The notes below the pieces were generated by a model. That model searched no databases, was not told the origin of the DNA, and worked only from the letters and a program-made list of their open reading frames with translations. Both the position numbers and the translations under genes were made by a program. Below are positions 6,123 to 58,211 of a DNA stretch of 64,000 bases, piece after piece (position 1 is the first letter of the stretch; each line of letters starts with the position of its first letter). Where the stretch lies: contig CAWDUQ010000001.1 of the NCBI GenBank assembly GCA_963805495.1, forward strand, positions 131,432-195,431, in the 5' to 3' direction. This stretch comes from an uncultured Acidobacteriota bacterium. Its GTDB lineage: Bacteria; Acidobacteriota; Thermoanaerobaculia; UBA5066; Gp7-AA6.

Positions 6123-6257
6123 GCATTTCGCTGAGACCGCGTCTGACTGTCGTCGTTTTGGACCCACATCGACCCATGGTAGTCGGCCGCTACCTGTCTT
6201 GTTTCCGGGGCGCGGCGACGCCCGGTCGGACGCACAACGCCGCCGGTGTGCCCTTTG

Positions 6258-6932: not shown

Positions 6933-6992
6933 GCCTGACGCCCGGCATCAGCCGCTGCGCCAAGGGCTGTCCGCTGCACGCTCTTGTTAGGC
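6933..6992 (-). other. attC: attC site, short (60 nt) variant
   Basis: GCCTGAC...GTTAGGC. Confidence 0.65.
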
Positions 6993-7022
6993 CGCAGCAG
7001 GGCATCGACATCACTCCCCTGC

Positions 7023-7661: not shown

Positions 7662-7816
7662 GATTCCTCCTCGCGCGCCCTAACGCTCCGCTTCAGGCGC
7701 GGGCCGCGCAGCGGGATCACGAGCGGTTCGACCATGAGCGCCCGCATGGGCCCGCCCATCACCGACGAAGAGTCTACGAGCGCGCTGATTCAAATGGTCC
7801 ATTGTTGATCTCCGGC

Positions 7817-7888
7817 GCCTAACGATGCCGAATCATCCGCGCGACGCCAAGCGACTCGCGGCGCGTCGGCTGCATTCGGAGGTTAGAC
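7817..7888 (-). other. attC: attC site, divergent (72 nt, core GTTAGAC)
   Basis: GCCTAAC...GGTTAGAC. Confidence 0.6.
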
Positions 7889-7904
7889 GTCAACGCCGGG
7901 ATGG

Positions 7905-8837: not shown

Positions 8838-8838
8838 C

Positions 8839-8915
8839 GTCTAACGGGCGACGGGTCGGCGGCGAGCGCCGTAGCGAGGCGCAGGCGCGAGTCCGCTGCA
8901 CCCCCGCGGTTAGGC
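8839..8915 (-). other. attC: attC site (GTCTAAC variant)
   Basis: 77-nt. Confidence 0.8.
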
Positions 8916-9145
8916 GGCGTGCCGAGGTTCAGGTACGGTGCCATGGCGGTACGACCAGGCCAACCGGAAGGGGCATTCCTCGGTAGAAAGAATAATCGCC
9001 AATCGGAAAGCCCGAATATGCCGTGATCCGTTGCTCCGCGAGCATGCCGCAAGGGAAGGCGAGCACCAGATAAGCAACGACGATCAATACGGACCTTTTC
9101 CAAGGAGAGGTGCCTGCCTCGCGACGTGCGCCGAGCTACCACCGC

Positions 9146-9228
9146 GCCCTCGGACGCCGGGCTCGCGCCCACAGACCTACGGCGACAAGGACGGAGCGCC
9201 GCGAGTCCGCTGCAACCGCATGTTAGGC
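9146..9228 (-). other. attC: attC site, degenerate left arm
   Basis: right arm GAGTCCGCTGCAACCGCATGTTAGGC. Confidence 0.5.
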
Positions 9229-9540
9229 GGCCGCACATTCTGCGACTCTGGACCGAGCTGAACTCTCCCGCGCGAGGCCCGCAGCTTCCGCCACGATGCG
9301 ACGAATAGCATCCTGACTGGGTCGAGGCTTTCGCCGCGTTCGCTCATCCGCGTGCTCAGGTTTAAGACACCCCGATCAACTCACCGGTTCCCATCCTCTT
9401 GATGGATCTAGGGTTGCGTGCGCCGAGCTGCTGCCTCGGCTGTCCCCGAGAAGAGAAGCGCGCCCTCGGGGACGACCGCCGTCGAAAACGCAGCCCGCGG
9501 TTGCGTTCCCCCTTGCATGCCGCCAGTCCGTGTGCTACAT

Positions 9541-9560
9541 ACTGAACCGAATGGTTCAGT
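9541..9560 (+). promoter_or_regulatory. perfect dyad ACTGAACCGAATGGTTCAGT overlapping arsR start, candidate ArsR operator
   Basis: 9-2-9 palindrome spanning ATG at 9551. Confidence 0.5.
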
Positions 9561-9916
9561 ATTCGCGCGCCCACCTCGATGCCTCGTTCGCCGCGCTCTC
9601 GGATGCCACCCGACGCGGCGTTCTGGAGCAGCTGGGACGTTCCGACGCTTCGATCACGGACCTTGCCGAGAAGTTCCACATGACCCTCACGGGCATCAAG
9701 AAGCACGTCGGCGTCCTGGAGCAGTCCGGGCTCGTCACCACGGAGAAGCTCGGGCGCGTGCGGACCTGCAAGCTCGGCCCGCGCCGATTGGAGGAAGAGA
9801 CGGCATGGCTCGAGAGGTACCGCCATCTCTGGGACGCACGCTTCGACGAGTTGGACAAGGTCGTCGAGGAATTGAAACGAAAGGAGAAGGTCGATGGACG
9901 CAAGAAGAGAGAGTGA
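9551..9916 (+). CDS. arsR: ArsR/SmtB-family transcriptional regulator (track GTG start 9530 also possible)
   Basis: LSDATRRGVLEQL...HTH motif. Confidence 0.85.
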   Translation: MVQYSRAHLDASFAALSDATRRGVLEQLGRSDASITDLAEKFHMTLTGIKKHVGVLEQSGLVTTEKLGRVRTCKLGPRRLEEETAWLERYRHLWDARFDELDKVVEELKRKEKVDGRKKRE

Positions 9917-10409
9917 GGCCACACCGATGAAGAACCGCACGACTGTGGAACGGAAGTCCGAGCGTGAAATCGTCGTCACGCGAACTTTCAACGGTCCGGC
10001 GCGCATCGTGTTCGAGGCGTGGACCAAGCCCGAGTTGTTCAAGCAGTGGTGGGTGCCGAAGTCGATGGGAATGTCCCTGCTTTCCTGCGAAATGGATGTT
10101 CGTGTCGGGGGCAGGTACCGTTTGGAGTTCGCACACGGGGACTCACAGGCGGCGTTCTTCGGCACGTACAAGGAAGTAACACCGCACTCGCGCCTCGTCT
10201 GGACCAATGAGGAAAGTGACGAGGGATCCGTCACGACGGTGACCTTCGCGGAAACAGGCGGCAAGACGTTGCTCGTCATGCACGAGCTCTATCCCTCGAA
10301 GGAAGCTCTCGACGCTGCCGGCACCGGAGCTGCGGACGCAATGAGCGAGACGTTCGAGCAACTCGACGAGCTTCTCGTCGTCCTCGGCGCGAGCGTGGGA
10401 CGGTCATGA
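9894..10409 (+). CDS. SRPBCC / Aha1-domain protein (typical ArsR partner)
   Basis: 171 aa, AHSA1-like fold motifs; overlaps arsR stop. Confidence 0.8.
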   Translation: MDARRESEATPMKNRTTVERKSEREIVVTRTFNGPARIVFEAWTKPELFKQWWVPKSMGMSLLSCEMDVRVGGRYRLEFAHGDSQAAFFGTYKEVTPHSRLVWTNEESDEGSVTTVTFAETGGKTLLVMHELYPSKEALDAAGTGAADAMSETFEQLDELLVVLGASVGRS

Positions 10410-10575
10410 ACTCGTCGATCGCGCGGTCGTCGGCTGCCTCGCTGATTGGTCCCGACCTCGATCCCCCGTGGCACACCGTCTGCGAGTGGGCAATCGGTCC
10501 TCACGGCTGACCTCGGCGCGCTGCTCGCCCCGGCCGGCATGGCTCACATGCTGGCCGGGGCTTCCTGAAAGCAGA

Positions 10576-10651
10576 TCGTGCATCGGTCCGCAGCCGGGCC
10601 AAGGGCCGAGGCGAAGCCGAGCAGCGACTCCGCTGCACCCGGGGGTCAGGC
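10576..10651 (-). other. attC: attC site, degenerate (core GTCAGGC)
   Basis: right arm GACTCCGCTGCACCCGGGGGTCAGGC. Confidence 0.5.
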
Positions 10652-10712
10652 CCGGTAGATTCGCGCCGCGCCTCGGTCAATTCGCGGGCGCGACGGCTGG
10701 TAGACTGGCCGT

Positions 10713-11186
10713 ATGAAAACTCGACGCAGCAGGCTCGCTCTAGCCACCTGTCTTCTCTTCGTGACGGGCAGGGCGCTCGCCCAGGATTTGCCGAAGCTCG
10801 TCACCAGGGCGGACGTCGAGAAAGCCGCCCACGCGAAGTTCAAGGATGGCTGGCAGCCGATGCCGACGCAGGTCTCGTTCGCAGAAGATGGCGGCAACCT
10901 GCAGGTCAGCGTGAGCGTCGAGCCCCGTGAAGCGCAAAGCACCGTGCGGACCTGGGAAGCGACAATGAAGAAGATGAAGCCGGGCACCAAGGTCGACACC
11001 GTTCCGGGGCTGGGCAAAGACGCGATCTTCGTCAGCACCCGCCCGGACTCGGGTGCGCTCTATGTCGACTTCGACAAGCCGCTCGTGCAGCTCAACGTCG
11101 GCGTCGCCGGTGCCAAGACCCCCGAGCAAGCAAAGCAGCTCGCCCTCGACCTCGGCAAAGTGATCAGCCCACGGATCGGAAAATAG
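10713..11186 (+). CDS. secreted hypothetical protein (signal peptide)
   Basis: MKTRRSRLALATCLLFVTGRALAQD leader. Confidence 0.55.
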   Translation: MKTRRSRLALATCLLFVTGRALAQDLPKLVTRADVEKAAHAKFKDGWQPMPTQVSFAEDGGNLQVSVSVEPREAQSTVRTWEATMKKMKPGTKVDTVPGLGKDAIFVSTRPDSGALYVDFDKPLVQLNVGVAGAKTPEQAKQLALDLGKVISPRIGK

Positions 11187-11216
11187 TGTCTGGCGCGCAG
11201 GCTGCCGAACCCGCGG

Positions 11217-11678
11217 CTATGCGTCGGCGTACGCTCTTTCCAGTGCCGCCACGTCGAGCTTGACCATCTTCATCATCGCTTCCATCACAGCCTGCACTTT
11301 CTTCCGGTTCTTGTCGCCGATGAGCTCCATGAAGCGTCTCGGGACGATCTGCCAGGTGATGCCGAACTGATCCGTGATCCAGCCACACTGCGATGGGGTT
11401 GCGCCGGCGCTGATGAGCTTGTTCCAGTACTCGTCAACTTCTTCCTGGTCTTTGCAGTCGACAAAGAGCGAGAAACCTTCGGAGAATTTGAAGTACGGGC
11501 CGCCGTTGTAGCCCATGAAGGACTGACCACCGATGACGAATTCGGCGGAAGTGATCGGGCCGTCCTTGCCAGTGCGAGCGACGGTCTTGATCTCAGAGTC
11601 CGGGAACGTGGTGGTGTAGAACGCCATGGCAGCTTCGAGCTGGCCGTTGAACATCAGGAAAGGTGTCACTTTGGTCAT
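11217..11678 (-). CDS. VOC-family (glyoxalase/PhnB-like) protein
   Basis: 153 aa, PhnB/3-demethylubiquinone MT-like domain motifs. Confidence 0.7.
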   Translation of the reverse strand: MTKVTPFLMFNGQLEAAMAFYTTTFPDSEIKTVARTGKDGPITSAEFVIGGQSFMGYNGGPYFKFSEGFSLFVDCKDQEEVDEYWNKLISAGATPSQCGWITDQFGITWQIVPRRFMELIGDKNRKKVQAVMEAMMKMVKLDVAALERAYADA

Positions 11679-11706
11679 CTGTGTGTCTCCTTTGTTTTCG
11701 GTCTCC

Positions 11707-20639: not shown

Positions 20640-21050
20640 GCCTTCAAGTGAATTCTCCTGCCTCGTCCAGAGCAGGCCACCTAGAACCAGAAGAACTGTT
20701 GCCGCGGCGAGACCGAATGTGCCCACAAACAAGCCGACGAATCGGAGGAGCAGGGCCGTGTCAGCTGCGGGGATGAGCGCGCATGCCAGGACGATCCGCC
20801 TGGCTCCCGACACCCTGCAGGCCAGGATGACCACGAGGGCGAGGATGACGAGGTGCACCGAAAACATGAGCCATAGCGCCCTCACAGCTGCGATCAGGGA
20901 AGGATTGAGTCCACTCGCCAGGATGGTGCTGGAGACCGAGGGGTAGCCGGCGGCGTGGAAGGCGGCCGTGGCGACGAGGAGAATGCCTGCTCCGATGATG
21001 AGCCAGCGACTCACTCGGATCGGCTCAGCCACGGCCGCACCATCCGTCAA
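20634..21050 (-). CDS. integral membrane protein
   Basis: 138 aa. Confidence 0.5.
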   Translation of the reverse strand: MTDGAAVAEPIRVSRWLIIGAGILLVATAAFHAAGYPSVSSTILASGLNPSLIAAVRALWLMFSVHLVILALVVILACRVSGARRIVLACALIPAADTALLLRFVGLFVGTFGLAAATVLLVLGGLLWTRQENSLEGA

Positions 21051-21071
21051 GTCGCGTGTGTGTTCTCCGGG

Positions 21072-21147
21072 CGCCTAACGGGTGGCGGGTCAGCGGCGAG
21101 CGCCGTAGCGAAGCGTAGGCGCGAGTCCGCTGCACCCGCGGGTTAGG
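21072..21147 (-). other. attC: attC site
   Basis: 76-nt. Confidence 0.85.
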
Positions 21148-21362
21148 CGACGCTTGCTCGCCACTGCGCCACGCTGCGGTCACCCGCTTTAGCTCTACGC
21201 CCACGGACTTGATTCTCCGGGTGCCACCACTGCCTCTAGCCCTGACGTCAGACGCCCTGCAACCCACGACCCGCGGCTATCGTTGACGGGCCAGGCCAAT
21301 CGCCACGCTGGAAAAGCCCCGGGCAGGAAGGCGGAACTCGGGGACCTCATTCGTCTCACGTC
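21148..21362. repeat. family B2 cassette body (no confident ORF)
   Basis: paralogs at 33507-33720, 52093-52306. Confidence 0.7.
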
Positions 21363-21480
21363 GCCTAACGGGTGGCGCATAAGCTGCGGGCGCCCGACCG
21401 CCATCAGATCCCTGAACACACCACGAGTTTCCCTTGCGACGGAGTGCAGGGCGACCGTCAGCTTCATGCGCGTGTTAGGC
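21363..21480 (-). other. attC: attC site, long class
   Basis: 118-nt. Confidence 0.85.
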
Positions 21481-21843
21481 GCCCCTTCCCTTAAGGGCTT
21501 ACACGCCACGCGACACCTCGCTCACCTCAGACCACGACCACGGGATGCGCCGGCTGGCGCGCGCCTCGGATTGTCCTCCCTCTCGCCACTCGCGCGCCAG
21601 AGCGGCGCCGATTAGGACGGGGGGCGGGCCGACAGATAAGCCGTCAGCTGCCACGTTCCCAGAAAATGCCATGCTGCGCCCCGCTCCTGGCGCCGAGGTA
21701 GTCGGCCCGCATCCCGGAGGCGGACGGCGCGCAGAACTTTTACCGATTACGCCAGACTCTCCCCTCCGGACACAATCGCAAGCCTCGCGATCGTCGACGC
21801 GACTATTCAGCCCGCGCGCCGGCCGCCGTCTTGAGTCCGAAGC
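21481..21843. repeat. family A cassette body (no confident ORF)
   Basis: 1 of 12 paralogs. Confidence 0.75.
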
Positions 21844-21919
21844 GCCTAACGGGCGGCGGGTCAGCGGCGAGTGACGAGCCGAAGGCGAGGAACGAGTCCG
21901 CTGCACCCGCGGGTTAGGC
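21844..21919 (-). other. attC: attC site
   Basis: 76-nt. Confidence 0.85.
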
Positions 21920-22130
21920 GGCGCTTCACAGCCACCGTGACCTGCAGCCGAAAGCCTTTCGAGGCTTACGCCCATAGCGGTGCTTCTCCGGGAGCCACGA
22001 CAGCCCCATAGATAGAGACACCGGAACTCGTACGTTCGCAACTATCGTTGTCGACCCGAGCGCCCCGCCACGCTGGAAAAGCCCTGGGCAGGAGGGCGTG
22101 ACTCGGGGCCCTCATTTCTCCGGAACGCCC
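21920..22130. repeat. family B cassette body
   Basis: 1 of about 18 paralogs. Confidence 0.75.
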
Positions 22131-22248
22131 GCCTAACGGGTGGCGCATAAGCTGCGGGCGCCCGGAAGTGACCAGATCCCTGGCCTCGCCACGAGCTTCC
22201 CTTCCGACGGAGTGCATGGCGACCGTCAGCTTCATGCGCGGGTTAGGC
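22131..22248 (-). other. attC: attC site, long class
   Basis: 118-nt. Confidence 0.85.
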
Positions 22249-22611
22249 GCCCCTTCCCTTGAGGGTTTACACGCCAAGCGACACCTCGCTCACACCAGAC
22301 CTTGACCACGGGATGCGCCGGCTGGCGCGCGCTACGGATTGTCCTCCCTCTCGCCACTCGCGCGCCAGAGCGGCGCGGATCAAGCCGGGGGGCGGGCCGA
22401 CAGATAAGTCGTCTGCTGCCACGCCTCCAGAACTTGCCACCCTTCGCCCCGCTCCTGGAGCCGAGATAGTCGGCCCGCATCCCGGAGGCGGACGGCGCGC
22501 AGAACTTCTACCGATTACGCCAGCCTCTCCCCTCCGGACACAATCGCGAGCCTCGTGATCGTGGACGCGACTATTCAGCCCGCGCGCCGGCCGCCGTCTT
22601 GAGTCCGAAGC
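22249..22611. repeat. family A cassette body
   Basis: paralog. Confidence 0.75.
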
Positions 22612-22687
22612 GCCTAACGGGTGGCGGGTCAGCGGCGAGCTCCGAGGCGAAGCCGAGGAGCGAGTCCGCTGCACCCGCGGGTTAGGC
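22612..22687 (-). other. attC: attC site
   Basis: 76-nt. Confidence 0.85.
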
Positions 22688-22901
22688 GGCGCTTCACCAC
22701 CAAGATGCTGAGCCACCGACCGGCTTTCAGCGCCTATGCCCACGGCCAACCTTCTTTGTGAGCCACGACAGCCTCATGAATAGAGACACCGCAACTCGCT
22801 TCGCGTTCAGAACTATCGTTGTCGACCCGAACGCCTCGCCACTCTGGAAAAGCCCTGGGAAGGAGGGCGTGGCTCGGGGACCCCATTTCTCCGGAACGCC
22901 C
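22688..22901. repeat. family B cassette body
   Basis: paralog. Confidence 0.75.
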
Positions 22902-22977
22902 GCCTAACGGGTGGCGGGTCAGCGGCGAGCGCCGTAGCGAAGCGTAGGCGCGAGTCCGCTGCACCCGCGGGTTAGGC
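22902..22977 (-). other. attC: attC site
   Basis: 76-nt. Confidence 0.85.
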
Positions 22978-23191
22978 GGCGCTTCACAGCCACGATGGCC
23001 GGACGCCAAACGCCTTTCGGAACCTATGCCCACGACAGTGCTTCCCCGGGAGCCACGACAGCCCCAAGCATGGAGACACCGCAACTCGACCCGCGTTCGC
23101 AACTATCGTTGTCGACCCGAGCGCCTTGCCACCTTGGAGAAGCCCTGGGCAGGAGGGCGTGACTCGGGGACCCCATTTCTCCGGAACGCCC
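22978..23191. repeat. family B cassette body
   Basis: paralog. Confidence 0.75.
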
Positions 23192-23309
23192 GCCTAACGG
23201 GTGGCGGGTCAGCTGCGGGCGCCCCGCAGAGATGAAACCCCTAGCCTCGCGACAACTTCCCTTGCGCGGCAATGCCAGGGCGACCGTCAGCTGCACCCGC
23301 GGGTTAGGC
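23192..23309 (-). other. attC: attC site, long class
   Basis: 118-nt. Confidence 0.85.
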
Positions 23310-23672
23310 GCCCCTTCCCTGTCGGGTTTACACGCCACGCGACACCTCGCTCGCACCAGGCCTCGACCACGGGATGTGCCGGCTGGCGCGCGCTACGGAT
23401 TGTCCTCCCTCTCGCCACTCGCGCGCCAGAGCGGCGCCGATTAAGACGGGGGGCGGGCCGACAGATAAGCCGTCTGCTGCCACGCCTCCAGAAAATGCCA
23501 CGCTGCGCCCCGCTCCTGGAGCCGAAATAGTCGGCCCGCATCCCGCAGGCGGACGGCGCGCAGAACTTGTACCGATTACGCCAACCTTTCCCCTCCGGAC
23601 ACAATCGCGAGCTTCGCGATCGTTGACGCAACTATCCAGCCCGCGCGCCGGCCGCCGTCTTGAGTCCGAAGC
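23310..23672. repeat. family A cassette body
   Basis: paralog. Confidence 0.75.
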
Positions 23673-23748
23673 GCCTAACGGGTGGCGGGTCAGCGGCGAG
23701 CGCCGTAGCGAAGCGTAGGCGCGAGTCCGCTGCACCCGCGGGTTAGGC
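23673..23748 (-). other. attC: attC site
   Basis: 76-nt. Confidence 0.85.
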
Positions 23749-23959
23749 GGCGCTTCACCGCCACGATGACCTGCCGCCAACGACTTCCTCAGCCTTACGC
23801 CCACGACAGCAATTCTCCGGGTGCCACGATCGCCCCATGAATAGCGACGCTGCGCGGATCGCGTTCGCAACTATCGTTGTCGACCCCTGCGCCTCGCCAC
23901 CATGGAAAGGCCCTGGGCAGGAAGACGAGACTCGGGGCCCTCATTTCTCCGGCACGCCC
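23749..23959. repeat. family B cassette body
   Basis: paralog. Confidence 0.75.
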
Positions 23960-24035
23960 GCCTAACGGGTGGCGGGTCAGCGGCGAGCGCCGTAGCGAAG
24001 CGTAGGCGCGAGTCCGCTGCACCCGCGGGTTGGGC
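23960..24035 (-). other. attC: attC site (core GTTGGGC)
   Basis: 76-nt. Confidence 0.8.
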
Positions 24036-24038
24036 GGC

Positions 24039-24518
24039 CTACTGTTTTGCACTGGCGCCTTCATCGGGCCATAACTTAAAGGCAAATACGTCATCGCAAC
24101 GCGCTGTGCTACAACCTCGCCCTGACGCAGCAAGGCCATGCGCGAAAGCCACGCCATCCATCTTGCGAATCGCTACCCGCTCCCAGCCTTCCTCAGGATA
24201 CGCAATGGTGAGGACGAGGCTCTCACCCGCGGCAAGCGGTCTCGGCGTTTGACCGACGGGCCACAGCTGCCGGAAGCCCGGTGGCAGAACCCCGTAGTCA
24301 ATCTTGCTGACGTCTTGCGGCGTTGAACTATCAATCGCCCAGAGGACGTCGTTGCCCGGGCCGGGTGGCGCGACTCGCGTGGGCTTCCCCGCGACTTCGA
24401 GACGGAGAATGGCGAATGGCTTCGCCGGGGCCACGAGGTGGGGAACTGGTGTCTCGTCGCTGTGACATCCAGACGCGAGAACGCTGACAGTCGCTGTCGC
24501 GACGAGTACCGATAGCAA
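24039..24518 (-). CDS. lipoprotein (signal peptide + Cys), start uncertain (TTG?)
   Basis: LSVLVATATVSVLASGC lipobox-like leader. Confidence 0.5.
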   Translation of the reverse strand: MLSVLVATATVSVLASGCHSDETPVPHLVAPAKPFAILRLEVAGKPTRVAPPGPGNDVLWAIDSSTPQDVSKIDYGVLPPGFRQLWPVGQTPRPLAAGESLVLTIAYPEEGWERVAIRKMDGVAFAHGLAASGRGCSTARCDDVFAFKLWPDEGASAKQ

Positions 24519-24527
24519 CTTCGAGCC

Positions 24528-24603
24528 GCCTAACGGGTGGCGGGTCAGCGGCGAGCGCCGTAGCGAAGCGTAGGCGCGAGTCCGCTGCACCCGCGGGTTA
24601 GGC
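24528..24603 (-). other. attC: attC site
   Basis: 76-nt. Confidence 0.85.
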
Positions 24604-24817
24604 GGCGCTTCACAGCCACGGTGACCTGCAGCCGAAAGCCCTTCGAAACCTACGCCCATGACGGCGCTTCTCCGGGAGCCACGACAGCCCCATACATAGA
24701 GACACCGCAACTCGCCCCGGGTCCAGAACTATCGTTGTCGACCCGAGCGCCTCGCCACTCTGGAAAAGCCCTGGGCAGGAGGACGTGACTCGGGGACCCC
24801 ATTTCCCCGGGACGCCC
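24604..24817. repeat. family B cassette body
   Basis: paralog. Confidence 0.75.
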
Positions 24818-24893
24818 GCCTAACGGGTGGCGGGTCAGCGGCGAGCTCCGAGGCGAAGCCGAGGAGCGAGTCCGCTGCACCCGCGGGTTAGGC
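24818..24893 (-). other. attC: attC site
   Basis: 76-nt. Confidence 0.85.
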
Positions 24894-24909
24894 GGCTGTT
24901 GATCGAGAT

Positions 24910-25203
24910 TCATGGGCCGAAGGTGTTTGCACCAGGCAGCAGTTTGCCTTGCTCGGCGAGATCCATGGCCTCAAGAGCGTCAGCCACCCACATGTCAAAC
25001 TCTGAGGCGTCGTACTCCCCCTTAGGTACTAGCCGAAATGCACCTGGCCTATGCTGCTTCCCAAGCTCGAGAACGAGCTCGGGCGTCGGAATCTCCTTGA
25101 GACGCTTCAGCTCGACAACTTGGCCCTGACGATTGAAAAAGACGACGGTCATCAACCCTTCTGCGACTTTCGCTAGGACCTCCGATGCCGAATACGTGCG
25201 CAT
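24910..25203 (-). CDS. hypothetical protein (97 aa)
   Basis: single ORF filling cassette. Confidence 0.45.
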   Translation of the reverse strand: MRTYSASEVLAKVAEGLMTVVFFNRQGQVVELKRLKEIPTPELVLELGKQHRPGAFRLVPKGEYDASEFDMWVADALEAMDLAEQGKLLPGANTFGP

Positions 25204-25216
25204 TCGTTGTTCAGCC

Positions 25217-25334
25217 GCCTAACGGGTGGCGGGTCAGCTGCGGGCGCCCGACCGCCACGATGCCCCTCGACTCGCCACAACCATCCCTCTCGCCAAACCG
25301 CATGGCGACCGTCAGCTGCACCCGCGGGTTAGGC
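25217..25334 (-). other. attC: attC site, long class
   Basis: 118-nt. Confidence 0.85.
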
Positions 25335-25697
25335 GCCCCTTCCCTGTCGGGTTTACACGCCACGCGACACCTCGCTCGCACCAGGCCTACACCATGGGAT
25401 GCGCCGGCTGGCGCGCGCCACGGATTGGCCTCCCTCTCGCCACTCGCGCGCCAGAGCGGCGCGGATTACGACGGGGGGCGGGCCGACTGTTGAGTCGTCT
25501 GATGCCCTACGAGATCCTCGACCCACGCTGCGCCCTGCTCCTGGAGCCGAGATAGTCGGCCCGCATCCCGGAGGCGGACGGCGCGCAGAACTCCTACCGA
25601 TCACGCCAACCTCTCCCCTCCGGACACAATCGCATGCCTCGCGATCGTCGACGCGACTATTCAGCCCGCGCGCCGGCCGCCGTCTTACGTGCGAAGC
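25335..25697. repeat. family A cassette body (identical to 37206-37568)
   Basis: paralog. Confidence 0.75.
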
Positions 25698-25773
25698 GCC
25701 TAACGGGTGGCGGGTCAGCGGCGAGTGACGAGCCGAAGGCGAGGAACGAGTCCGCTGCACCCGCGGGTTAGGC
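25698..25773 (-). other. attC: attC site
   Basis: 76-nt. Confidence 0.85.
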
Positions 25774-25987
25774 GGCGCTTCACCGCCACGATGACCTGCA
25801 GCCGAAAGCCTTCCGAAACCTACGCCCATGACGGCGCTTCTCCGGGAGCCACGACAGCCCCAAACATAGAGACACCGCAACTCGACCGGCGTTCACAACT
25901 ATCGTTGCCGACCCGAGCGCCTTGCCACTCTGGAAAGGCCCTGGGAAGGAGGGCGTGACTCGGGGACCCCATTTCCCCGGAACGCCC
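25774..25987. repeat. family B cassette body
   Basis: paralog. Confidence 0.75.
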
Positions 25988-26101
25988 GCCTAACGGGTGG
26001 CGGGTCAGGTGCAAGCGCATGCCGTAGATGCCTGCGCGCTCGCGGCCGCGGACCAATCGCCTCGCTGTCATCGCGCTTGCAGCTGCACCCGCGGGTTAGG
26101 C
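25988..26101 (-). other. attC: attC site, long variant (114 nt, distinct centre)
   Basis: GCCTAAC...GTTAGGC. Confidence 0.75.
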
Positions 26102-26354
26102 GGCCGCAGATGCGATGGCTCTAGACCGAGACCCGGGCGACCAGCCGCGCTGCAACGCGCTCCGACAGCCGCGCCGCTCTTGAAGGGCTTGAGAGCACCG
26201 GCCCAACCGCCAACCTGCGACATCAGTCTGTTGCTTTCCGCGACACCAAGATGATCTCACCGACTCCAGAACTCTGTTGCCGGCCCAGCCCGTTGAGCCG
26301 TCGAGTTGCCGCGATGCCCGCCCTGCCGAGGACCTGATGACTGGTCTTCGGCCC
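26102..26354. repeat. family C cassette body (shares TCTCACCG..TCCRGAACTC motif)
   Basis: related to 26431-26657, 26734-26956, 29093-29329. Confidence 0.6.
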
Positions 26355-26430
26355 GCCTAACGGGTGGCGGGTCAGCGGCTCGTGAGGCGCCGAAGGCGCC
26401 GAACGAGTCCGCTGCACCCGCGGGTTAGGC
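26355..26430 (-). other. attC: attC site
   Basis: 76-nt. Confidence 0.85.
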
Positions 26431-26657
26431 AGCCGCACGCTCGATGGAACTAGACCGCGGTGAAGCTGCCCGATCCGAGATGCCGCACCCGCAGCTTCCG
26501 CCACGATGCGACCTGCCAGCATCTTGATGGGACCGGGGCTAACGCCACGATGTCTCATCGGCTTGCCTGTTAGTTAGACACCTTATCTTCTCACCGGTTC
26601 CAGAACTCTGCTGGACTACGGGCAGACGAGCCGCGCTGTTGAGGGTGTTTCCGGCCT
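26431..26657. repeat. family C cassette body (near-identical to 29093-29329)
   Basis: paralog. Confidence 0.7.
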
Positions 26658-26733
26658 GCCTAACGGGTGGCGGGTCAGCGGCTCGTGAGGCGCCGAAGGC
26701 GCCGAACGAGTCCGCTGCACCCGCGTGTTAGGC
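26658..26733 (-). other. attC: attC site
   Basis: 76-nt. Confidence 0.85.
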
Positions 26734-26956
26734 AGCCGCAGTTTCGCCGCCCGTAAACCGCGATGCCCGCGACCAGCCGTGAGACAACGGTCTGCCTCTG
26801 CTGAGGCCGGGCGACTTCTCAGCTCCTTGATGGGACAGGTACTTCCGCCCAACTCGATCATCTGTGTGCCTAAGGTAGCCCCGATGATCTCACCGGTTCC
26901 GGAACTCCGATGGAATCAGGCTGGACTTGCCACGCCGCCGAGCGCGACTTCGGCCT
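26734..26956. repeat. family C cassette body
   Basis: paralog. Confidence 0.6.
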
Positions 26957-27032
26957 GCCTAACGGGTGGCGGGTCAGCGGCGAGCTCCGAGCCGAAGGCG
27001 AGGAGCGAGTCCGCTGCACCCGCGGGTTAGGC
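26957..27032 (-). other. attC: attC site
   Basis: 76-nt. Confidence 0.85.
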
Positions 27033-27437
27033 CGCACGCCCGAAGTAATTAACAACGCCTTTCCTCCAATACAGGTACCAAATGGCAATCGGAAGGCAGG
27101 GCACCCAAAGGAAGTCCGCTTTACCGGACGCAGCCAAGTTCCACGCACTCAAGCCGGCGAGGAGCAACCAAAACACGATCATCAGATGACGCGCCCACGG
27201 AGCCCGACTTCGAATGCCTAGGGCGATAATGAAAAGGAGACTGCCAAACACCAGCATCGCCATTCCCCAAACCGGCAAAGACCAGGATGGCAGATTCCGG
27301 AAGGACGAGGTGTCAACCAAACCGGCGGCACCGAGGATGGCACCCAGCAAGAATACTGAGCCGGCAAGAAACGATAGAACCATGCCGATCGTCAGCAACA
27401 TGGGGCGATGAGGAGCTGGCGATATCGGATCGGTCAT
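27027..27437 (-). CDS. integral membrane protein
   Basis: 136 aa. Confidence 0.5.
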   Translation of the reverse strand: MTDPISPAPHRPMLLTIGMVLSFLAGSVFLLGAILGAAGLVDTSSFRNLPSWSLPVWGMAMLVFGSLLFIIALGIRSRAPWARHLMIVFWLLLAGLSAWNLAASGKADFLWVPCLPIAIWYLYWRKGVVNYFGRAA

Positions 27438-28545: not shown

Positions 28546-28663
28546 GCCTAACGGGTGGCGGGTCAGCTGCGGGCGCCCGACCGCCACGATGCCCCTCGAC
28601 TCGCCACAACCTTCCCTCTCGCCAAACCGCATGGCGACCGTCAGCTGCACCCGCGGGTTAGGC
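28546..28663 (-). other. attC: attC site, long class
   Basis: 118-nt. Confidence 0.85.
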
Positions 28664-29016
28664 GCCCCTTCCCTGTCGGGTTTACACGCCACGCGACACC
28701 TCGCTCACCTCAGACCGTTACCACGGGATGCGCCGGCTGGCGCGCGCTACGAATTGTCCTCCCTCTCGCCACTCGCGCGCCAGAGCGGCGCCAATTACGA
28801 CGGGGGGCGGGCCGACTCTTGAGTCGTCTGATGCCCAGCCAGACCCACGAGCCACGCTGCGCCCTGCTCCTGGAGCCGAGATAGTCGGCCCGCATCCCGC
28901 AGGCGGACGGCGCGCAGAACTCTTACCGATGACGCCCAACTCTCCCCTCCGGACACAATCGCCAGCCTGGCGATCGTCGACGCGACTATTCAGCCCGCGC
29001 GCCGGCCGCCGTCTTA
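28664..29016. repeat. family A cassette body
   Basis: paralog. Confidence 0.75.
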
Positions 29017-29092
29017 CATCCGAAGCGCCTAACGGGTGGCGGGTCAGCGGCTCGTGAGGCGCCGAAGGCGCCGAACGAGTCCGCTGCACCCG
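29017..29092 (-). other. attC: attC site
   Basis: 76-nt. Confidence 0.85.
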
Positions 29093-29329
29093 CGTGTTAG
29101 GCAGCCGCACGCTCGATGGAACTAAACCGCGGTGAAGCTGCCCGATCCGAGCCGCCGCACCCGCAGCTTCCGCCACGATGCGACCTGCCAGCATCTTGAT
29201 GGGACCGGGGCTAACGCCACGATGTCTCATCGGCTTGCCTGTTAGTTAGACACCTTATCTTCTCACCGGTTCCAGAACTCTGCTGGACTACGCGCGGACG
29301 AGCCGCGCTGTTGAGGGTGTTTCCGGCCT
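29093..29329. repeat. family C cassette body (duplicate of 26431-26657)
   Basis: paralog. Confidence 0.7.
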
Positions 29330-30941: not shown

Positions 30942-31304
30942 GCCCTCACTCATTCGGGTTTACACGCCACGAGACACCTCGCCCGCACCAGGCCTCGACC
31001 ACGGGATGCGCCGGCTGGCGCGCGCTACGAATTGTCCTCCCTCTCGCCACTCGCGCGCCAGAGCGGCGCGGATTAAGCCGGGGGGCGGGCCGACTGTTAA
31101 GTCGTCTGATGCCCAACCGAATCCTCGAGCCACGCTGCGCCCCGCTTCTGGAGCCGAGATAGTCGGCCCGCATCCCGGAGGCGGCCGGCGCGCAGAACTT
31201 CTACCGATTACGCCGGCCTCTCCCCTCCGGACACAATCGCCTGCCTCGCGATCGTCGACGCGACTATTCAGCCCGCGCGACGGCCGCCGTCTCGAGTCCG
31301 AAGC
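30942..31304. repeat. family A cassette body
   Basis: paralog. Confidence 0.75.
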
Positions 31305-33430: not shown

Positions 33431-33506
33431 GCCTAACGGGTGGCGGGTCAGCGGCGAGCGCCGTAGCGAAGCGTAGGCGCGAGTCCGCTGCACCCGCGGG
33501 TTAGGC
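33431..33506 (-). other. attC: attC site
   Basis: 76-nt. Confidence 0.85.
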
Positions 33507-33720
33507 GACGCGTTTTCGCCGCGACGCCACGCTACGGTCACCCGTTCTTGATCTACGCCCACAGACTCGACTTTCCGGGTGCCACGACTACCTGCAGAAT
33601 AGACGCCACACGCCCTGCAACCCACGACCCGCGGCTATCGTTGTCGACCCGGCTGCCCCGCCAGGCTGGTAAAGCCCCGGGCAGGAAGACGCAACTCGGG
33701 GACCTCATTCCTCCCACGTC
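33507..33720. repeat. family B2 cassette body
   Basis: paralog. Confidence 0.7.
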
Positions 33721-34387: not shown

Positions 34388-34421
34388 AATCGGAAGCCAG
34401 AACTTCGGCCCGCCTAACGGG

Positions 34422-34497
34422 TGGCGGGTCAGCGGCGAGCGCCGTAGCGAAGCGTAGGCGCGAGTCCGCTGCACCCGCGGGTTAGGCGGCGCTTCAC
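34422..34497 (-). other. attC: attC site
   Basis: 76-nt. Confidence 0.85.
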
Positions 34498-34701
34498 AGC
34501 CACGGTGACCTGCAGCCGAAAGCCTTTCGGGACCTACGCCCATGACGGCGCTTCTCCGGGAGCCACGACAGCCCCATATATAGAGACACCGTAACTCTCC
34601 CCGCGTTCAGAACTATCGTTGTCGACCCGAGCGCCCCGCCACACTGGAAAAGCCCTGGGCAGGAGGGCGTGACTCGGGGACCCCATTTCCCCGGGACGCC
34701 C
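34498..34701. repeat. family B cassette body
   Basis: paralog. Confidence 0.75.
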
Positions 34702-34777
34702 GCCTAACGGGTGGCGGGTCAGCGGCGAGCGACCGAGCGGAGCGAGGGAGCGAGTCCGCTGCACCCGCGGGTTAGGC
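34702..34777 (-). other. attC: attC site
   Basis: 76-nt. Confidence 0.85.
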
Positions 34778-34992
34778 GGCGCTTCACCGCCAACACGCTG
34801 AGCAACCGATCGGCTTTCCAGCCTTACGCCCACGACTGCCCTTCTCCGGGGGCCACGACCGCCCCATACATTGGGGACACCGCAACTCGCCCCGCGTTCG
34901 CGACTATCGTTGTCGACCCTGCCGCCTCGCCACGTTGGAAAAGCCTTGGGCAGGAGGGCGTGACTCGGGGCCCTCATTGCTCCGGGACGCCC
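34778..34992. repeat. family B cassette body
   Basis: paralog. Confidence 0.75.
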
Positions 34993-37087: not shown

Positions 37088-37205
37088 GCCTAACGGGTGG
37101 CGGGTCAGCTGCGGGCGCCCGACCGCCACGATGCCCCTCGACTCGCCACAACCATCCCTCTCGCCAAACCGCATGGCGACCGTCAGCTGCACCCGCGGGT
37201 TAGGC
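37088..37205 (-). other. attC: attC site, long class
   Basis: 118-nt. Confidence 0.85.
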
Positions 37206-37568
37206 GCCCCTTCCCTGTCGGGTTTACACGCCACGCGACACCTCGCTCGCACCAGGCCTACACCATGGGATGCGCCGGCTGGCGCGCGCCACGGATTGGC
37301 CTCCCTCTCGCCACTCGCGCGCCAGAGCGGCGCGGATTACGACGGGGGGCGGGCCGACTGTTGAGTCGTCTGATGCCCAACGAGATCCTCGACCCACGCT
37401 GCGCCCTGCTCCTGGAGCCGAGATAGTCGGCCCGCATCCCGGAGGCGGACGGCGCGCAGAACTCCTACCGATCACGCCAACCTCTCCCCTCCGGACACAA
37501 TCGCATGCCTCGCGATCGTCGACGCGACTATTCAGCCCGCGCGCCGGCCGCCGTCTTACGTGCGAAGC
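37206..37568. repeat. family A cassette body (identical to 25335-25697)
   Basis: paralog. Confidence 0.75.
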
Positions 37569-39752: not shown

Positions 39753-39828
39753 GCCTAACGGGTGGCGGGTCAGCGGCGCGTGAAGAGCCGAAGGCGATGA
39801 ACGCGTCCGCTGCACCCGCGGGTTAGGC
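39753..39828 (-). other. attC: attC site
   Basis: 76-nt. Confidence 0.85.
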
Positions 39829-40039
39829 GGCGCTTCACCGCCACGATGACCTGCAGCCGACCGCCTCTCCTGCCTTACGCCCACGACCGCACTTCTCGGG
39901 GCGCCACGAATGCCCCTTGAAAAGAGACACCGCCACGACCGCATTCGCAACTATCGTTGTCGACCCCGGCGCTTCGCCACGCTGAAAAAGCCCTGGGCAG
40001 GAGGGCGTGACTCGGGGCCCTCATTGCTCCCCACCGTCC
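39829..40039. repeat. family B cassette body
   Basis: paralog. Confidence 0.75.
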
Positions 40040-40115
40040 GCCTAACGGGTGGCGGGTCAGCGGCGCGTGAAGAGCCGAAGGCGATGAACGCGTCCGCTGC
40101 ACCCGCGGGTTAGGC
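40040..40115 (-). other. attC: attC site
   Basis: 76-nt. Confidence 0.85.
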
Positions 40116-40326
40116 GGCGCTTCACCGCCACGATGACCTGCAGCCGACCGCCTCTCCTGCCTTACGCCCACGACCGCACTTCTCGGGGCGCCACGAATGC
40201 CCCTTGAAAAGAGACACCGCCACGACCGCATTCGCAACTATCGTTGTCGACCCCGGCGCTTCGCCACGCTGAAAAAGCCCTGGGCAGGAGGGCGTGACTC
40301 GGGGCCCTCATTTCTCCCCCACGTCC
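40116..40326. repeat. family B cassette body
   Basis: paralog. Confidence 0.75.
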
Positions 40327-41493: not shown

Positions 41494-41569
41494 GCCTAAC
41501 GGGTGGCGGGTCAGCGGCGAGTGACGAGCCGAAGGCGAGGAACGAGTCCGCTGCACCCGCGGGTTAGGC
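41494..41569 (-). other. attC: attC site
   Basis: 76-nt. Confidence 0.85.
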
Positions 41570-41783
41570 GGCGCTTCACCGCCGCCGTGACCTGCAGCCG
41601 AAAGCCTTTCGGGACCTACGCCCATGACGGTGCTTCTCCGGGAGCCACCACAGCCTCATACATGGAGACACCGCAGCTCGCTCCGCGTTCGGAACTATCG
41701 TTGTCGACCCTAGCGCCCCGCCACGATGGAAAAGCCCTGGGCAGGAGGGCGTGACTCGGGGCCCTCATTGCTCCGGCACGCCC
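41570..41783. repeat. family B cassette body
   Basis: paralog. Confidence 0.75.
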
Positions 41784-41859
41784 GCCTAACGGGTGGCGGG
41801 TCAGCGGCGAGTGACGAGCCGAAGGCGAGGAACGAGTCCGCTGCACCCGCGGGTTAGGC
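41784..41859 (-). other. attC: attC site
   Basis: 76-nt. Confidence 0.85.
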
Positions 41860-42072
41860 GGCGCTTCACCGCCACGATGCTGAGCCACCGACCGGCTTTC
41901 AGCGCCTATGCCCACGGCCAACCTTCTTTGGGAGCCACGACAGCCTCACGAATAGAGACACCGCAACTCCCCCGCGTTCGCGACTATCGTTGTCGACACG
42001 GGCGCCTCGCCACTCTGGAAAAGCCCTGGGCAGGAGGGCGTGACTCGGGGCCCTCATTGCTCCGGAACGCCC
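41860..42072. repeat. family B cassette body
   Basis: paralog. Confidence 0.75.
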
Positions 42073-44808: not shown

Positions 44809-44884
44809 GCCTAACGGGCGGCGGGTCAGCGGCGAGTGACGAGCCGAAGGCGAGGAACGAGTCCGCTGCACCCGCGGGTTAGGC
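44809..44884 (-). other. attC: attC site
   Basis: 76-nt. Confidence 0.85.
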
Positions 44885-45098
44885 GGCGCTTCACCGCCAG
44901 GATGCCCTGCCACCACCCCACCACGTTGACTCACGCCCACCGCCTCCATTGGTTGGGCACCACGACGGCCCCATTTCTGGGGACACCGCAACCCGGTCGC
45001 TGCCGGGAAGTTTCGTTGTCGACCATCGTGCCCTGCCACCATGGAAAGGCCTTGGGCAGGAGGGCGTGACTCGGGGACCTCATTTCCCCGGGACGCCC
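44885..45098. repeat. family B cassette body (divergent)
   Basis: paralog. Confidence 0.6.
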
Positions 45099-46795: not shown

Positions 46796-46871
46796 GCCTA
46801 ACGGGTGGCGGGTCAGCGGCGAGCGCCGTAGCGAAGCGCAGGCGCGAGTCCGCTGCACCCGCGGGTTAGGC
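46796..46871 (-). other. attC: attC site
   Basis: 76-nt. Confidence 0.85.
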
Positions 46872-47085
46872 GGCGCTTCACCGCCACGATGACCTGCAGC
46901 CGAAAGCCTTTCGGGACCTACGCCCATGACGGTGGTTCTCCGGGAGCCACGACCGCCCCACACATAGAGACACCGTAACTCGCCACGGGTCCAGAACTAT
47001 CGTTGTCGACCCGAGTGCGTCGCCACGCTGGAAAGGCCTTGGGCAGGAAGGCGTGGCTCGGAGACCTCATTTCCCCGGGACGCCC
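46872..47085. repeat. family B cassette body
   Basis: paralog. Confidence 0.75.
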
Positions 47086-52016: not shown

Positions 52017-52092
52017 GCCTAACGGGTGGCGGGTCAGCGGCGAGCGCCGTAGCGAAGCGTAGGCGCGAGTCCGCTGCACCCGCGGGTTAGGC
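52017..52092 (-). other. attC: attC site
   Basis: 76-nt. Confidence 0.85.
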
Positions 52093-52306
52093 GACGCTTG
52101 CTCGCCACTGCGCCACGCTGCGGTCACCCGCTTTAGCTCTACGCCCACGGACTTGATTCTCCGGGTGCCACCACTGCCTCTAGCCCTGACGTCAGACGCC
52201 CTGCAACCCACGACCCGCGGCTATCGTTGACGGGCCAGGCCAATCGCCACGCTGGAAAAGCCCCGGGCAGGAAGGCGGAACTCGGGGACCTCATTCGTCT
52301 CACGTC
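52093..52306. repeat. family B2 cassette body (identical to 21148-21362)
   Basis: paralog. Confidence 0.7.
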
Positions 52307-53878: not shown

Positions 53879-53954
53879 GCCTAACGGGTGGCGGGTCAGC
53901 GGCGCGTGAAGAGCCGAAGGCGATGAACGCGTCCGCTGCACCCGCGGGTTAGGC
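53879..53954 (-). other. attC: attC site
   Basis: 76-nt. Confidence 0.85.
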
Positions 53955-54168
53955 GGCGCTTCACCGCCACCATGACCTGCTGCCGACCGCCTTTCGACAC
54001 TTACGCCCATGACGGTGGTCCCCCGGGAGCCACGACAGCCCCAAAGATAGAGACACCGCAACTCGTCCAGCGTTCGCAACTAACGTTGTCGACCCGAGCG
54101 CCTCGCCACCATGGAAAAGCCCTGGGCAGGAGGGCGTGACTCGGGGCCCTCATTGCTCCGGAACGCCC
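53955..54168. repeat. family B cassette body
   Basis: paralog. Confidence 0.75.
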
Positions 54169-54244
54169 GCCTAACGGGTGGCGGGTCAGCGGCGCGTGAA
54201 GAGCCGAAGGCGATGAACGCGTCCGCTGCACCCGCGGGTTAGGC
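54169..54244 (-). other. attC: attC site
   Basis: 76-nt. Confidence 0.85.
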
Positions 54245-54458
54245 GGCGCTTCACCGCCACCATGACCTGCTGCCGACCGCCTTTCGACACTTACGCCCAT
54301 GACGGTGCTTCCCCGGGAGCCACGACAGCCCCAAAGATAGAGACACCGCAACTCGCCCAGCGTTCGCAACTATCGTTGTCGACATGCTCGCCTCGCCACC
54401 ATGGAAAAGCCCTGGGCAGGAGGGCGTGACTCGGGGCCCTCATTGCTCCGGAACGCCC
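54245..54458. repeat. family B cassette body
   Basis: paralog. Confidence 0.75.
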
Positions 54459-55308: not shown

Positions 55309-55384
55309 GCCTAACGGGTGGCGGGTCAGCGGCGAGCGCCGTAGCGAAGCGTAGGCGCGAGTCCGCTGCACCCGCGGGTTAGGC
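55309..55384 (-). other. attC: attC site
   Basis: 76-nt. Confidence 0.85.
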
Positions 55385-55598
55385 GGCGCTTCACCGCCAC
55401 GGTGACCTGCAGCCGAAAGCCTTTCGGGACCTACGCCCATGACGGCGCTTCTCCGGGAGCCACGGCAGCCCCATACATAGAGACACCGCAACTCGCTCCG
55501 CGTTCAGAACTACCGTTGTCGACGCAAGCGCCTCGCCACGCTGGAAAAGCCTTGGGGAGGAGGGCGTGACTCGGGGCCCTCATCTCTCCCCCACGTCC
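55385..55598. repeat. family B cassette body
   Basis: paralog. Confidence 0.75.
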
Positions 55599-56079: not shown

Positions 56080-56155
56080 GCCTAACGGGTGGCGGGTCAG
56101 CGGCGCGCGAGGAGCCGAAGGCGATGAACGAGTCCGCTGCACCCGCGGGTTAGGC
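56080..56155 (-). other. attC: attC site
   Basis: 76-nt. Confidence 0.85.
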
Positions 56156-56367
56156 GGCGCTTCACCGCCACGATGACCTGCAGCCGACCGCCTCTCCTGC
56201 CTTACGCCCACGACCGCACTTCTCGGGGCGCCACGAATGCCCCTTGAAAAGAGACACCGCACACGACCGCATTCGCAACTATCGTTGTCGACCCCGGCGC
56301 TTCGCCACGCTGAAAAAGCCCTGGGCAGGAGGGCGTGACTCGGGGCCCTCATTGCTCCCCACCGTCC
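56156..56367. repeat. family B cassette body
   Basis: paralog. Confidence 0.75.
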
Positions 56368-56933: not shown

Positions 56934-57014
56934 GGCCTAACGCTTGCATAGGCTGTAACTTCGACTTCCTAAGCGATTCTGTCAATCGCTGCATCGCCCA
57001 CCCCCCGCGCCTCT
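56934..57014 (-). other. attI: putative attI site between intI stop and first cassette
   Basis: GCCTAAC half-site at 56936 followed by non-attC sequence up to intI stop codon (57015). Confidence 0.5.

Positions 57015-58211
<1,197 letters not shown>

Follow-up and report, generated by a model that had tools for sequence, protein, structure and literature searches.

A highly amplified mini-cassette with a small open reading frame in a very large chromosomal integron of an uncultured Acidobacteriota bacterium

The integron array and its family B cassettes

The stretch analysed here (hereafter, the window) comprises 64,000 nucleotides of contig CAWDUQ010000001.1 (positions 131,432 to 195,431; assembly GCA_963805495.1) from an uncultured Acidobacteriota bacterium. 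It holds a very large integron array, with around 98-100 attC sites of the form GCCTAAC...GTTAGGC that span positions ~238 to 56443, and our subject is family B, the mini-cassette of this array to which the copy at 24604-24817 belongs. The majority of the attC sites are 76 nt long, and a second type measures 118 nt.

The product of the integron integrase gene, intI, matches TIGR02249 with 434 bits (cut-off 265) and the Pfam families Phage_integrase and Phage_int_SAM_4. Beyond its stop codon, on the 3' side, come an attI-like segment, the first cassette, which carries an open reading frame (ORF) for a 161-aa membrane protein, and then the remaining array. The same attI-like segment, with its GTTAGGC junction, also precedes the first cassette in two other arrays, those of the 37-kb metagenome contig L012 and of the genome L003, which is described below. 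The integrase gene is transcribed toward the array, in the same direction as the cassettes, which is the so-called inverted layout of integron and integrase. On the other side of intI there are imuA-like and imuB genes, and the arrangement imuA-imuB-intI-attI recurs on L012. The array is a very large sedentary chromosomal integron.

Family B was delimited by blastn clustering of all the bodies lying between attC sites, which gave one family with exactly 21 members, and a profile search with nhmmer recovered the same 21 copies and none further. Their bodies measure 211-215 bp and they represent around 21% of the ~98 cassettes. Any two copies are 53-100% identical (median 78.5%), with just four pairs at 98% or above. 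Family B is a real and strongly amplified type of mini-cassette, and it behaves as one unit, the cassette. An earlier note, made by reading the letters of the window, had already listed 21 copies making up about 20% of the cassettes, and both searches bear out this count and the positions, except that two coordinates were slightly off (34498 should read 34488, and 21148 should read 21149). The sequence blocks that it assigned to all the copies are real, with 10 and 16 matches at up to 3 mismatches against 0 expected, but they occur in only 10 and 16 of the 21 copies. Likewise, the attC of 76 nt that it placed on both sides of every body is always found on the left, whereas the right one measures 118 nt in five copies and 114 nt in one.

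Sense strand and cassette boundaries

The cassettes, those of family B included, are read on the minus strand of the window. Four independent lines of evidence lead to this assignment:

i) Position of the integrase gene. intI is a minus-strand gene located immediately upstream of both attI and the array, which marks the minus strand as the sense strand.

ii) Distribution of ORFs. The longest ORF is on the minus strand in 69 of the 91 cassette bodies, which again points to this strand as the sense one. Furthermore, in 27 cases a minus-strand ORF takes up more than 88% of the body, with its start 4-52 nt from the boundary and its end 3-62 nt short of the next attC.

iii) Linkage of the 118-nt attC. 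This attC type is always linked to a body of 363 bp on its right, belonging to another family (family A), and the linkage makes sense only if the attC is the 3'-end of a minus-strand cassette.

iv) Exact sharing of one cassette. The two identical copies of the B2 subtype at 21149 and 52093 are located in unrelated contexts, and what they share is the upstream GTTAGGC, the body and the left 76-nt attC up to its GTTAGGC, and no further. The pair 39829/56156 shows the same exact sharing from GTTAGGC to GTTAGGC, in contexts that are otherwise unrelated. Therefore, the minus strand is sense and each B copy moves as one cassette, the boundaries being the canonical ones.

Members of family B are flanked by attC sites with cores of the type RYYYAAC...GTTRRRY in an array that adjoins intI and attI, they form discrete units bounded at the G|TTRRRY crossover point, and they carry one ORF in the orientation of the array, with no promoter-like site in the seven copies scanned. 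They are bona fide integron gene cassettes.

Coding potential of the family B cassettes

On the minus strand every B copy has a (G)GGAG-like motif followed, 2-3 nt later, by an ATG at base 16 of the body (base 13 in B2); in the copy at 24604-24817 the motif is GGGG/GGAG-like and the ATG lies at 24802-24800. The ORF that starts there is intact in 18 of the 21 window copies. It has 49-51 codons and ends with TAG, TAA or TGA in the same alignment column, exactly 46 nt before the 76-nt attC of the cassette itself. Including the stop codon it is 150-156 bp long, that is, 70-76% of the body, and it runs on the same strand as intI and the other cassette ORFs. The consensus of the product is M[RG][AS]PSHALLP[RK]AFPxW[RQ]G..VDNDS....GVS..GAVVAPGE..SWA. 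The ATG is invariant in all the window copies, and among 11 further copies from other arrays one lineage (L009) has TTG instead. Each of the three disrupted copies (34778, 41860 and 56156) has a single 1-nt indel, placed on a terminal branch, and the indels common to several diverged copies are multiples of 3.

The family had been described in the earlier note as lacking an ORF. This does not hold, because the description was based on the plus strand, which is antisense here. The recurrent plus-strand frame is open in only 8 of the 21 copies, about half of the copies have stop codons in it, conserved ones among them, and stop-creating changes are not depleted, so we rejected it as a coding frame. 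When the integrase and the array point in the same direction, reading the intuitive strand yields false calls of ORF-less cassettes.

The cassette at 51290-51496 (minus strand, 207 bp) encodes a 55-aa protein with a KOW motif (Pfam PF00467, E=6e-7); therefore true genes for proteins of ~50 aa do occur as cassettes in this array.

Selection on the reading frame

From a neighbour-joining tree that combined the 21 window copies with three close metagenome copies, 270 substitutions were inferred in the ORF region. In the null model each of them was moved to a randomly chosen site carrying the same base. One stop-creating substitution was observed in the sense frame against 8.3±2.8 expected (P=0.002), and the expectation on the variable columns alone was 6.4±2.4 (P=0.006). 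The single change lies on an internal branch and is probably an artefact of the reconstruction. In the remaining five frames the stop-creating changes fitted the expectation (P 0.08-0.82). As the depletion is found in the sense frame only, selection keeps that frame, and only that one, open.

Regarding the peptide, which is rich in Arg, Pro, Ala and Gly, its evolution is nearly neutral and it has no predicted fold. The synonymous fraction was 0.335 in the 24 close copies (neutral 0.288-0.298) and 0.307 in an extended set of 23 intact sequences (neutral 0.276). A few codons have changed only synonymously, namely S5, L9, A12 and the last A (4:0, 3:0, 6:0 and 3:0 synonymous to replacement changes respectively), and some others are hypervariable. 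Antisense frame 1 reached a BLOSUM z of 3.1 for its replacements; it has conserved stop codons inside and we discarded this value as an artefact.

Relatives in other arrays

A search of 5.8 billion proteins recovered two B members with a single sequence and six with a profile, and an exhaustive hidden Markov model (HMM) search of 1.84 billion representatives gave six true members. Three other HMM matches (P0003, P0009 and P0011) were rejected as unrelated repeat proteins. In metagenomes tblastn found one B locus, and among the species-representative genomes the sole match was a metagenome-assembled genome of an uncultured Acidobacteriota (L003), whose array is 70-76% identical to that of the window where the two can be aligned. 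All the DNA copies recovered lie between attC sites of the window's type, on contigs from at least 8 samples, and the external ORFs from these samples are intact, with 45-88% identity and the stop in the same column. Intact orthologues with an amino-acid identity of 45-60% were seen in at least 8 samples other than that of the window. Across the lineages the body measures 207-215 bp, the start codon lies at base 13-17 and the stop codon 46 nt from the attC. In several gene calls the B ORF is prolonged upstream across the preceding attC, an artefact caused by the open frames of GC-rich DNA. Judging from these searches, family B is rare, with relatives only in a few Acidobacteriota-type arrays.

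Origin of the copies

The B copies diverge by up to 47%, the subtypes interleave in the tree with copies from other samples, and neighbouring copies are mostly not sisters. With such a range of identities, and with copies of other metagenomes in between, a single recent tandem duplication does not explain the family. Adjacency is near chance (5 B-B pairs, and 5 of the 12 family A cassettes followed by B). We therefore rejected both a linkage of A with B and a tandem structure of B, since the adjacent copies are also mostly non-sisters.

The B copy at the second position from attI has 99.5% identity to one located 16 kb away, and all the copies of families A and B lie within the 35 kb proximal to intI. 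Counting from attI, family B occupies positions 2, 4, 7 and 8 in the window, 3 and 5 in L003, 3 in L009 and 1 in L012. Thus, it is among the first three cassettes in the four arrays whose attI end is visible, which at a frequency of ~20% has a P of ~0.06 and is not significant. The placement near attI is suggestive. Integration of integron cassettes takes place at attI, and therefore the pattern fits repeated excision and re-insertion, mediated by IntI, of a very mobile or very abundant cassette. Overall, the copies seem best explained by IntI-mediated amplification at the cassette level and not by a single tandem duplication, and a selfish amplification of this kind is plausible, although it may instead have been selected for dosage.

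Interpretation of family B

We consider it probable that family B is a translated small-ORF cassette of ~50 codons, whose copies were multiplied as cassettes by the recombination system of the integron itself. Each unit consists of the 211-215 bp body and its own 76-nt attC, and the body is laid out as compactly as that of a usual cassette gene without promoter, with a purine-rich GGAG-like motif, the ATG, the 49-51 codons and the stop. The peptide would be small, fast-evolving and probably disordered, and it would be translated from read-through transcripts or from transcripts linked to intI. The spread of such a very small and successful cassette may have proceeded by repeated IntI-catalysed excision, re-insertion at attI and drift down the array, with a few later local duplications adding to the copy number.

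A number of observations weigh against this interpretation. The spacing of 2-3 nt between the GGAG motif and the ATG is short for a Shine-Dalgarno sequence, and the DNA has here 63-65% GC, so that open frames are common. The peptide had no match in Pfam and NCBIfam, and AlphaFold2, run on an alignment of 16 sequences, predicted no secondary structure or confident fold (predicted local distance difference test, pLDDT, 61.6; predicted template modelling score, pTM, 0.12). Protein-level constraint is weak (omega ~0.8-0.86, P 0.05-0.10). The substitutions are spread evenly over the codon positions (109/115/121), the invariant columns show no periodicity (19/15/17), and the conservativeness of the replacements by BLOSUM is not significant (z=1.25). 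In addition, evolution over the initial ~45 nt of the ORF is about half as fast as over the remainder, and conservation there extends even to four-fold sites, which points to some additional or alternative constraint at the nucleotide level. As for the external copies, the intactness of most of them is biased by ascertainment, as they were found via gene calls. L003 is the one external genome found by its DNA pattern, hence without a bias towards intact ORFs, and there only one of the four B copies is intact; moreover, this copy carries a compensated +1/-1 frameshift that rewrites residues 3-14. The indels of L003 may be real or assembly errors. The earlier note had named a consistent ORF under purifying selection as the evidence that would speak against its description. 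Such an ORF is indeed there, but at the protein level the signal of purifying selection is weak, as the above omega indicates. No toxin or antitoxin domain was found in B, which is a single 50-codon ORF without Pfam or NCBIfam match and without a two-gene module.

The alternatives that we weighed are the following:

i) A selfish cassette that is non-coding, or one with an ORF whose sole importance is that it is translated. Family B would then have no protein function and would spread simply as a minimal, efficiently recombined cassette. Its frame would be open either by accident, the DNA being GC-rich, or because a cassette left untranslated would make the polycistronic transcript of the array unstable and would be selected against. 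The omega and the flat codon periodicity agree with this, as do the conservation of the first 45 nt including four-fold sites, the L003 frameshift, which alters 11 residues while the frame stays open, the peptide without predicted fold, the apparent enrichment next to attI and the identical copies in unrelated contexts. There are also precedents: selfishness has been proposed for highly paralogous 'non-coding' cassettes of Vibrio (PMC1382264), and the translation rate of a cassette controls the expression of downstream cassettes (PMC11511950). Nevertheless, we regard this alternative as unlikely, because the depletion of nonsense changes is confined to one frame, all the lineages have retained the start codon and the stop position, and several codons show synonymous change only. 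Protection against polarity would be partial, as the ORF covers ~150 of 290 nt and is uncoupled from the start of the next cassette, and the attC sites of B are no different from those of other cassettes. The hypothesis of a special attC was rejected on the same grounds, since the B sites share their loop variants with the non-B (N) sites, the identities are very similar (0.90 for B-B, 0.89 for B-N and 0.88 for N-N) and the attC sites are not congruent with the tree of the bodies.

A specific form of this alternative, which we judge to be quite unlikely, is that B is a 'translated spacer', i.e. a minimal selfish cassette in whose coding sequence only initiation, a traverse of ~50 codons by the ribosomes and termination at a fixed place are selected, the peptide being irrelevant. 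If this were true, the open frame would spare the polycistronic array transcript from destabilisation or termination, B could accumulate to ~20% of the array and repeatedly take the slots proximal to attI, and the conservation of the first ~45 nt would reflect an RNA- or DNA-level signal, for instance for initiation or recombination.

ii) A regulatory cassette, either a promoter for its neighbours or a small RNA (sRNA) or cis-acting RNA. We find this very unlikely, even though the blocks of B are conserved irrespective of codon position and an integron cassette encodes sRNA-Xcc1 in Xanthomonas, as cited in PMC6557892. The promoter and sRNA roles had been put forward in the first description of the family, and our tests lend them no support. 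In the 5.2 kb from 21000 to 26200, with seven B copies, we detected 0 sigma70-like promoters and 0 intrinsic terminators on either strand, although the consensus may not fit acidobacterial promoters and in silico prediction has failed on proven promoter cassettes (PMC11014356). The -35/-10-like motifs seen by eye vary in spacing (14-17 nt) through indels, and sigma54-like and extracytoplasmic function (ECF)-like motifs were rejected as well, as their spacing shifts with indels. Rfam gave no match in the whole window at the gathering threshold, nor in 24450-27100 at E<=1. RNAalifold found no supported structure with 21 and 27 copies on both strands: over 220 columns the energy was -15.9 kcal/mol for the sense strand and -10.6 kcal/mol for the antisense strand, no more than 2 of 30 pairs were compensatory, and the minimum free energy z-scores of single sequences against shuffled ones had means of -0.55 and -0.15. 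The conserved segments of B have no extended complementarity to intI, attI or other sites of the window but only scattered chance 14-mers, so an antisense regulator was discarded too.

iii) A decayed remnant of a larger cassette gene, whose fragments were passively duplicated as pseudogenes. Three window and three L003 copies are frameshifted, the amino-acid constraint is weak and some 'gene-less' Vibrio cassettes are truncated genes (PMC11014356), but we take this to be extremely improbable, given that a longer homologue turned up neither among the 5.8 billion proteins nor among the 1.84 billion representatives of the exhaustive HMM search, that the true matches are the ~50-aa unit, or this unit extended upstream through the attC by gene callers, and that body length, start and stop positions are as tight as described above.

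Comparison with known cassettes

Vibrio superintegrons are already known to contain short cassettes with many paralogous copies, and family B can be classed with the ordinary integron gene cassettes, its peculiarities being an unusually small ORF and an unusually high copy number. Boucher et al. (2006) described one V. vulnificus 'non-coding' cassette family with 45 and 34 copies in two strains, non-coding meaning no ORF longer than 150 bp and no BLASTX match; these families were classed as non-coding after inspection of the alignments (PMC1382264). The Vibrio paralogous cassettes and family B are alike in being short, with many diverged copies in one sedentary chromosomal integron (PMC1382264), in having close homologues only in related arrays and no database protein matches (for B, none outside its own family), and in the question they raise, selfish spread or a regulatory role. 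However, family B differs in its unrelated sequence, its Acidobacteriota-type host, the intI in the same orientation and the ORF of 49-51 codons that is kept open. It documents, outside Vibrio, a short cassette family that makes up about one fifth of an array of ~100 cassettes, and may serve as a test case for selfish cassettes.

Promoter function is known from gene-less cassettes (Blanco et al. 2024, PMC11014356; Tansirichaiya et al. 2019, PMC6557892), and Blanco et al. define such cassettes as having no ORF longer than 210 bp. The B ORF is below this threshold and right at the 150-bp one of Boucher et al., so B would be gene-less under the 210-bp rule; besides, its neighbours are promoterless cassettes, for which an internal promoter would be of consequence. 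Nevertheless, the gene-less promoter cassettes measure 491-666 bp and their ORFs are far too small for that length, whereas the B ORF fills 70% of a 214-bp body, and no sigma70-like promoter was detectable in silico in the seven B copies. Furthermore, gene-less cassettes are expected to have no coding signature, but family B keeps the start, the stop position and the frame despite the flat periodicity. The Xanthomonas cassette of sRNA-Xcc1, as it is cited in PMC6557892, resembles B as a short cassette without a conventional protein gene, while B has no Rfam match, no conserved or stable structure on either strand, and a maintained ORF.

Ordinary single-gene cassettes have, like B, one promoterless ORF that begins a few nt after the GTTAGGC boundary and is followed by the cassette's own attC. 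The difference lies in the unusually small gene (50 codons), the weak protein constraint and the high copy number of B (21% of the array). The inverted orientation of the integrase is known as the Treponema type (Cury et al. 2016, PMC4889954), and in those integrons, as in the window, intI and the attC sites and cassettes share one direction. With an open frame and a nearly unconstrained peptide, family B is a candidate for the idea that the translation of a cassette, and not its product, shapes the expression of the array.

Table 1. Family B cassettes and other features of the integron. Spans of B cassettes include the body and its own 76-nt attC; coordinates are those of the window unless another array is named.
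Feature	Span	Body or core	Strand	ORF and remarks
intI, integron integrase	57015..58211		minus	398 aa; TIGR02249, Pfam, ORF listing
attI-like segment AGTTACAGCCTATGCAAGC-GTTAGGC	56935..56960	core GTTAGGC 56935-56941	minus	sequence reading
B, second from attI	56080..56367	56156-56367 (attC 56080-56155)	minus	disrupted, +1 frameshift; 99.5% identical to the 39829 copy
B	55309..55598	55385-55598	minus	55431-55583, 50 aa
B	54169..54458	54245-54458	minus	54291-54443, 50 aa
B	53879..54168	53955-54168	minus	54001-54153, 50 aa
B2 subtype	52017..52306	52093-52306	minus	52139-52294, 51 aa; 100% identical to the 21073-21362 cassette
B	46796..47085	46872-47085	minus	46918-47070, 50 aa
B, most divergent B1 copy	44809..45098	44885-45098	minus	44931-45083, 50 aa, TGA stop
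B	41784..42072	41860-42072	minus	disrupted, -1 frameshift
B	41494..41783	41570-41783	minus	41616-41768, 50 aa
B	40040..40326	40116-40326	minus	40162-40311, 49 aa
B	39753..40039	39829-40039	minus	39875-40024, 49 aa
B	34702..34992	34778-34992	minus	disrupted, +1 frameshift
B	34412..34701	34488-34701	minus	34534-34686, 50 aa
B2 subtype	33431..33720	33507-33720	minus	33553-33708, 51 aa
B	25698..25987	25774-25987	minus	25820-25972, 50 aa
B, copy of the earlier note	24528..24817	24604-24817 (attC 24528-24603)	minus	24650-24802, 50 aa, TAG stop, 46-nt tail
B	23673..23959	23749-23959	minus	23795-23944, 49 aa
B	22902..23191	22978-23191	minus	23024-23176, 50 aa
B	22612..22901	22688-22901	minus	22734-22886, 50 aa
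B	21844..22130	21920-22130	minus	21966-22115, 49 aa
B2 subtype	21073..21362	21149-21362	minus	21195-21350, 51 aa
Family A bodies		21481-21843, 22249-22611, 23310-23672, 25335-25697, 28664-29026, 30942-31304, 37206-37568, 43396-43758, 43877-44254, 47204-47566, 54946-55308, 55717-56079	minus	
Family C, window members		26431-26657, 29103-29329, 26734-26956, 26102-26354, 9230-9432	minus	
Family C, other arrays		L003 6246-6455, 3474-3638; L009 7417-7593		

Other cassettes and genes in the window

Family A has 12 copies on the minus strand, with a body of 363 bp and its own 118-nt attC type. The frame that begins at the first base of the body is open for ~114 codons in 10 of the 12 copies. The only copy with a start codon near the 5'-end is the one at 43877, a variant of 378 bp whose ATG lies at base 4 and whose product of 118 aa had no Pfam match. 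The order of A followed by B is also seen in the metagenome locus L004 and in the protein P0004.

Family C consists of small cassettes of 223-253 bp with no ORF (the longest have 30-37 aa). Its conserved blocks read GGAACCGGTGAGATGATC ... GATGAGCGAGCGTGGC-GNRA-GCC ... GTCAA, and include a GGC/GCC hairpin with a variable loop (GAAA, GCAA, GTAA or GTTA). It had no Rfam match at E<=1, and an alifold of 7 sequences gave -7.3 kcal/mol. Family C is a better candidate than family B for a cassette-borne RNA. The motif (G)TC(A/G)CATCGTGGCGG(T/A) appears in the 3' tails of B, in the middle of family C bodies and in several 118-nt attC sites (25217-25334, 28546-28663, 37088-37205 and 54828-54945).

Within the array, the ~8.5 kb at 3174-11706 contain only degenerate attC matches (5769 and 8839). 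The minus-strand genes in this part encode a PhoD phosphatase with a twin-arginine translocation (TAT) signal (687 aa), a short-chain dehydrogenase (310 aa) and an anthrone-oxygenase-like protein, and a PhoD cassette is also present in the metagenome locus L008.

Directly upstream of intI in its reading direction, at 58215-59572 (minus strand), there are small ORFs with a toxin-antitoxin-like appearance: a product of 146 aa, PIN/VapC-like by eye only, and a partner of 107 aa. The equivalent position of L012 holds a gene for a BrnA antitoxin, and the order imuA-imuB-(brnA)-intI-attI is common to L012 and the window. Just past intI, imuB (with an IMS domain) and the imuA-like gene, which has a RecA domain, occupy 60260-63189 on the minus strand. 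Both ORFs have in-frame repeated segments of ~30 aa (…PVVGAGLVPALPSSVAEEGGHKGRPYDGS…), which look like a GC-rich interspersed repeat inserted into the coding sequence.

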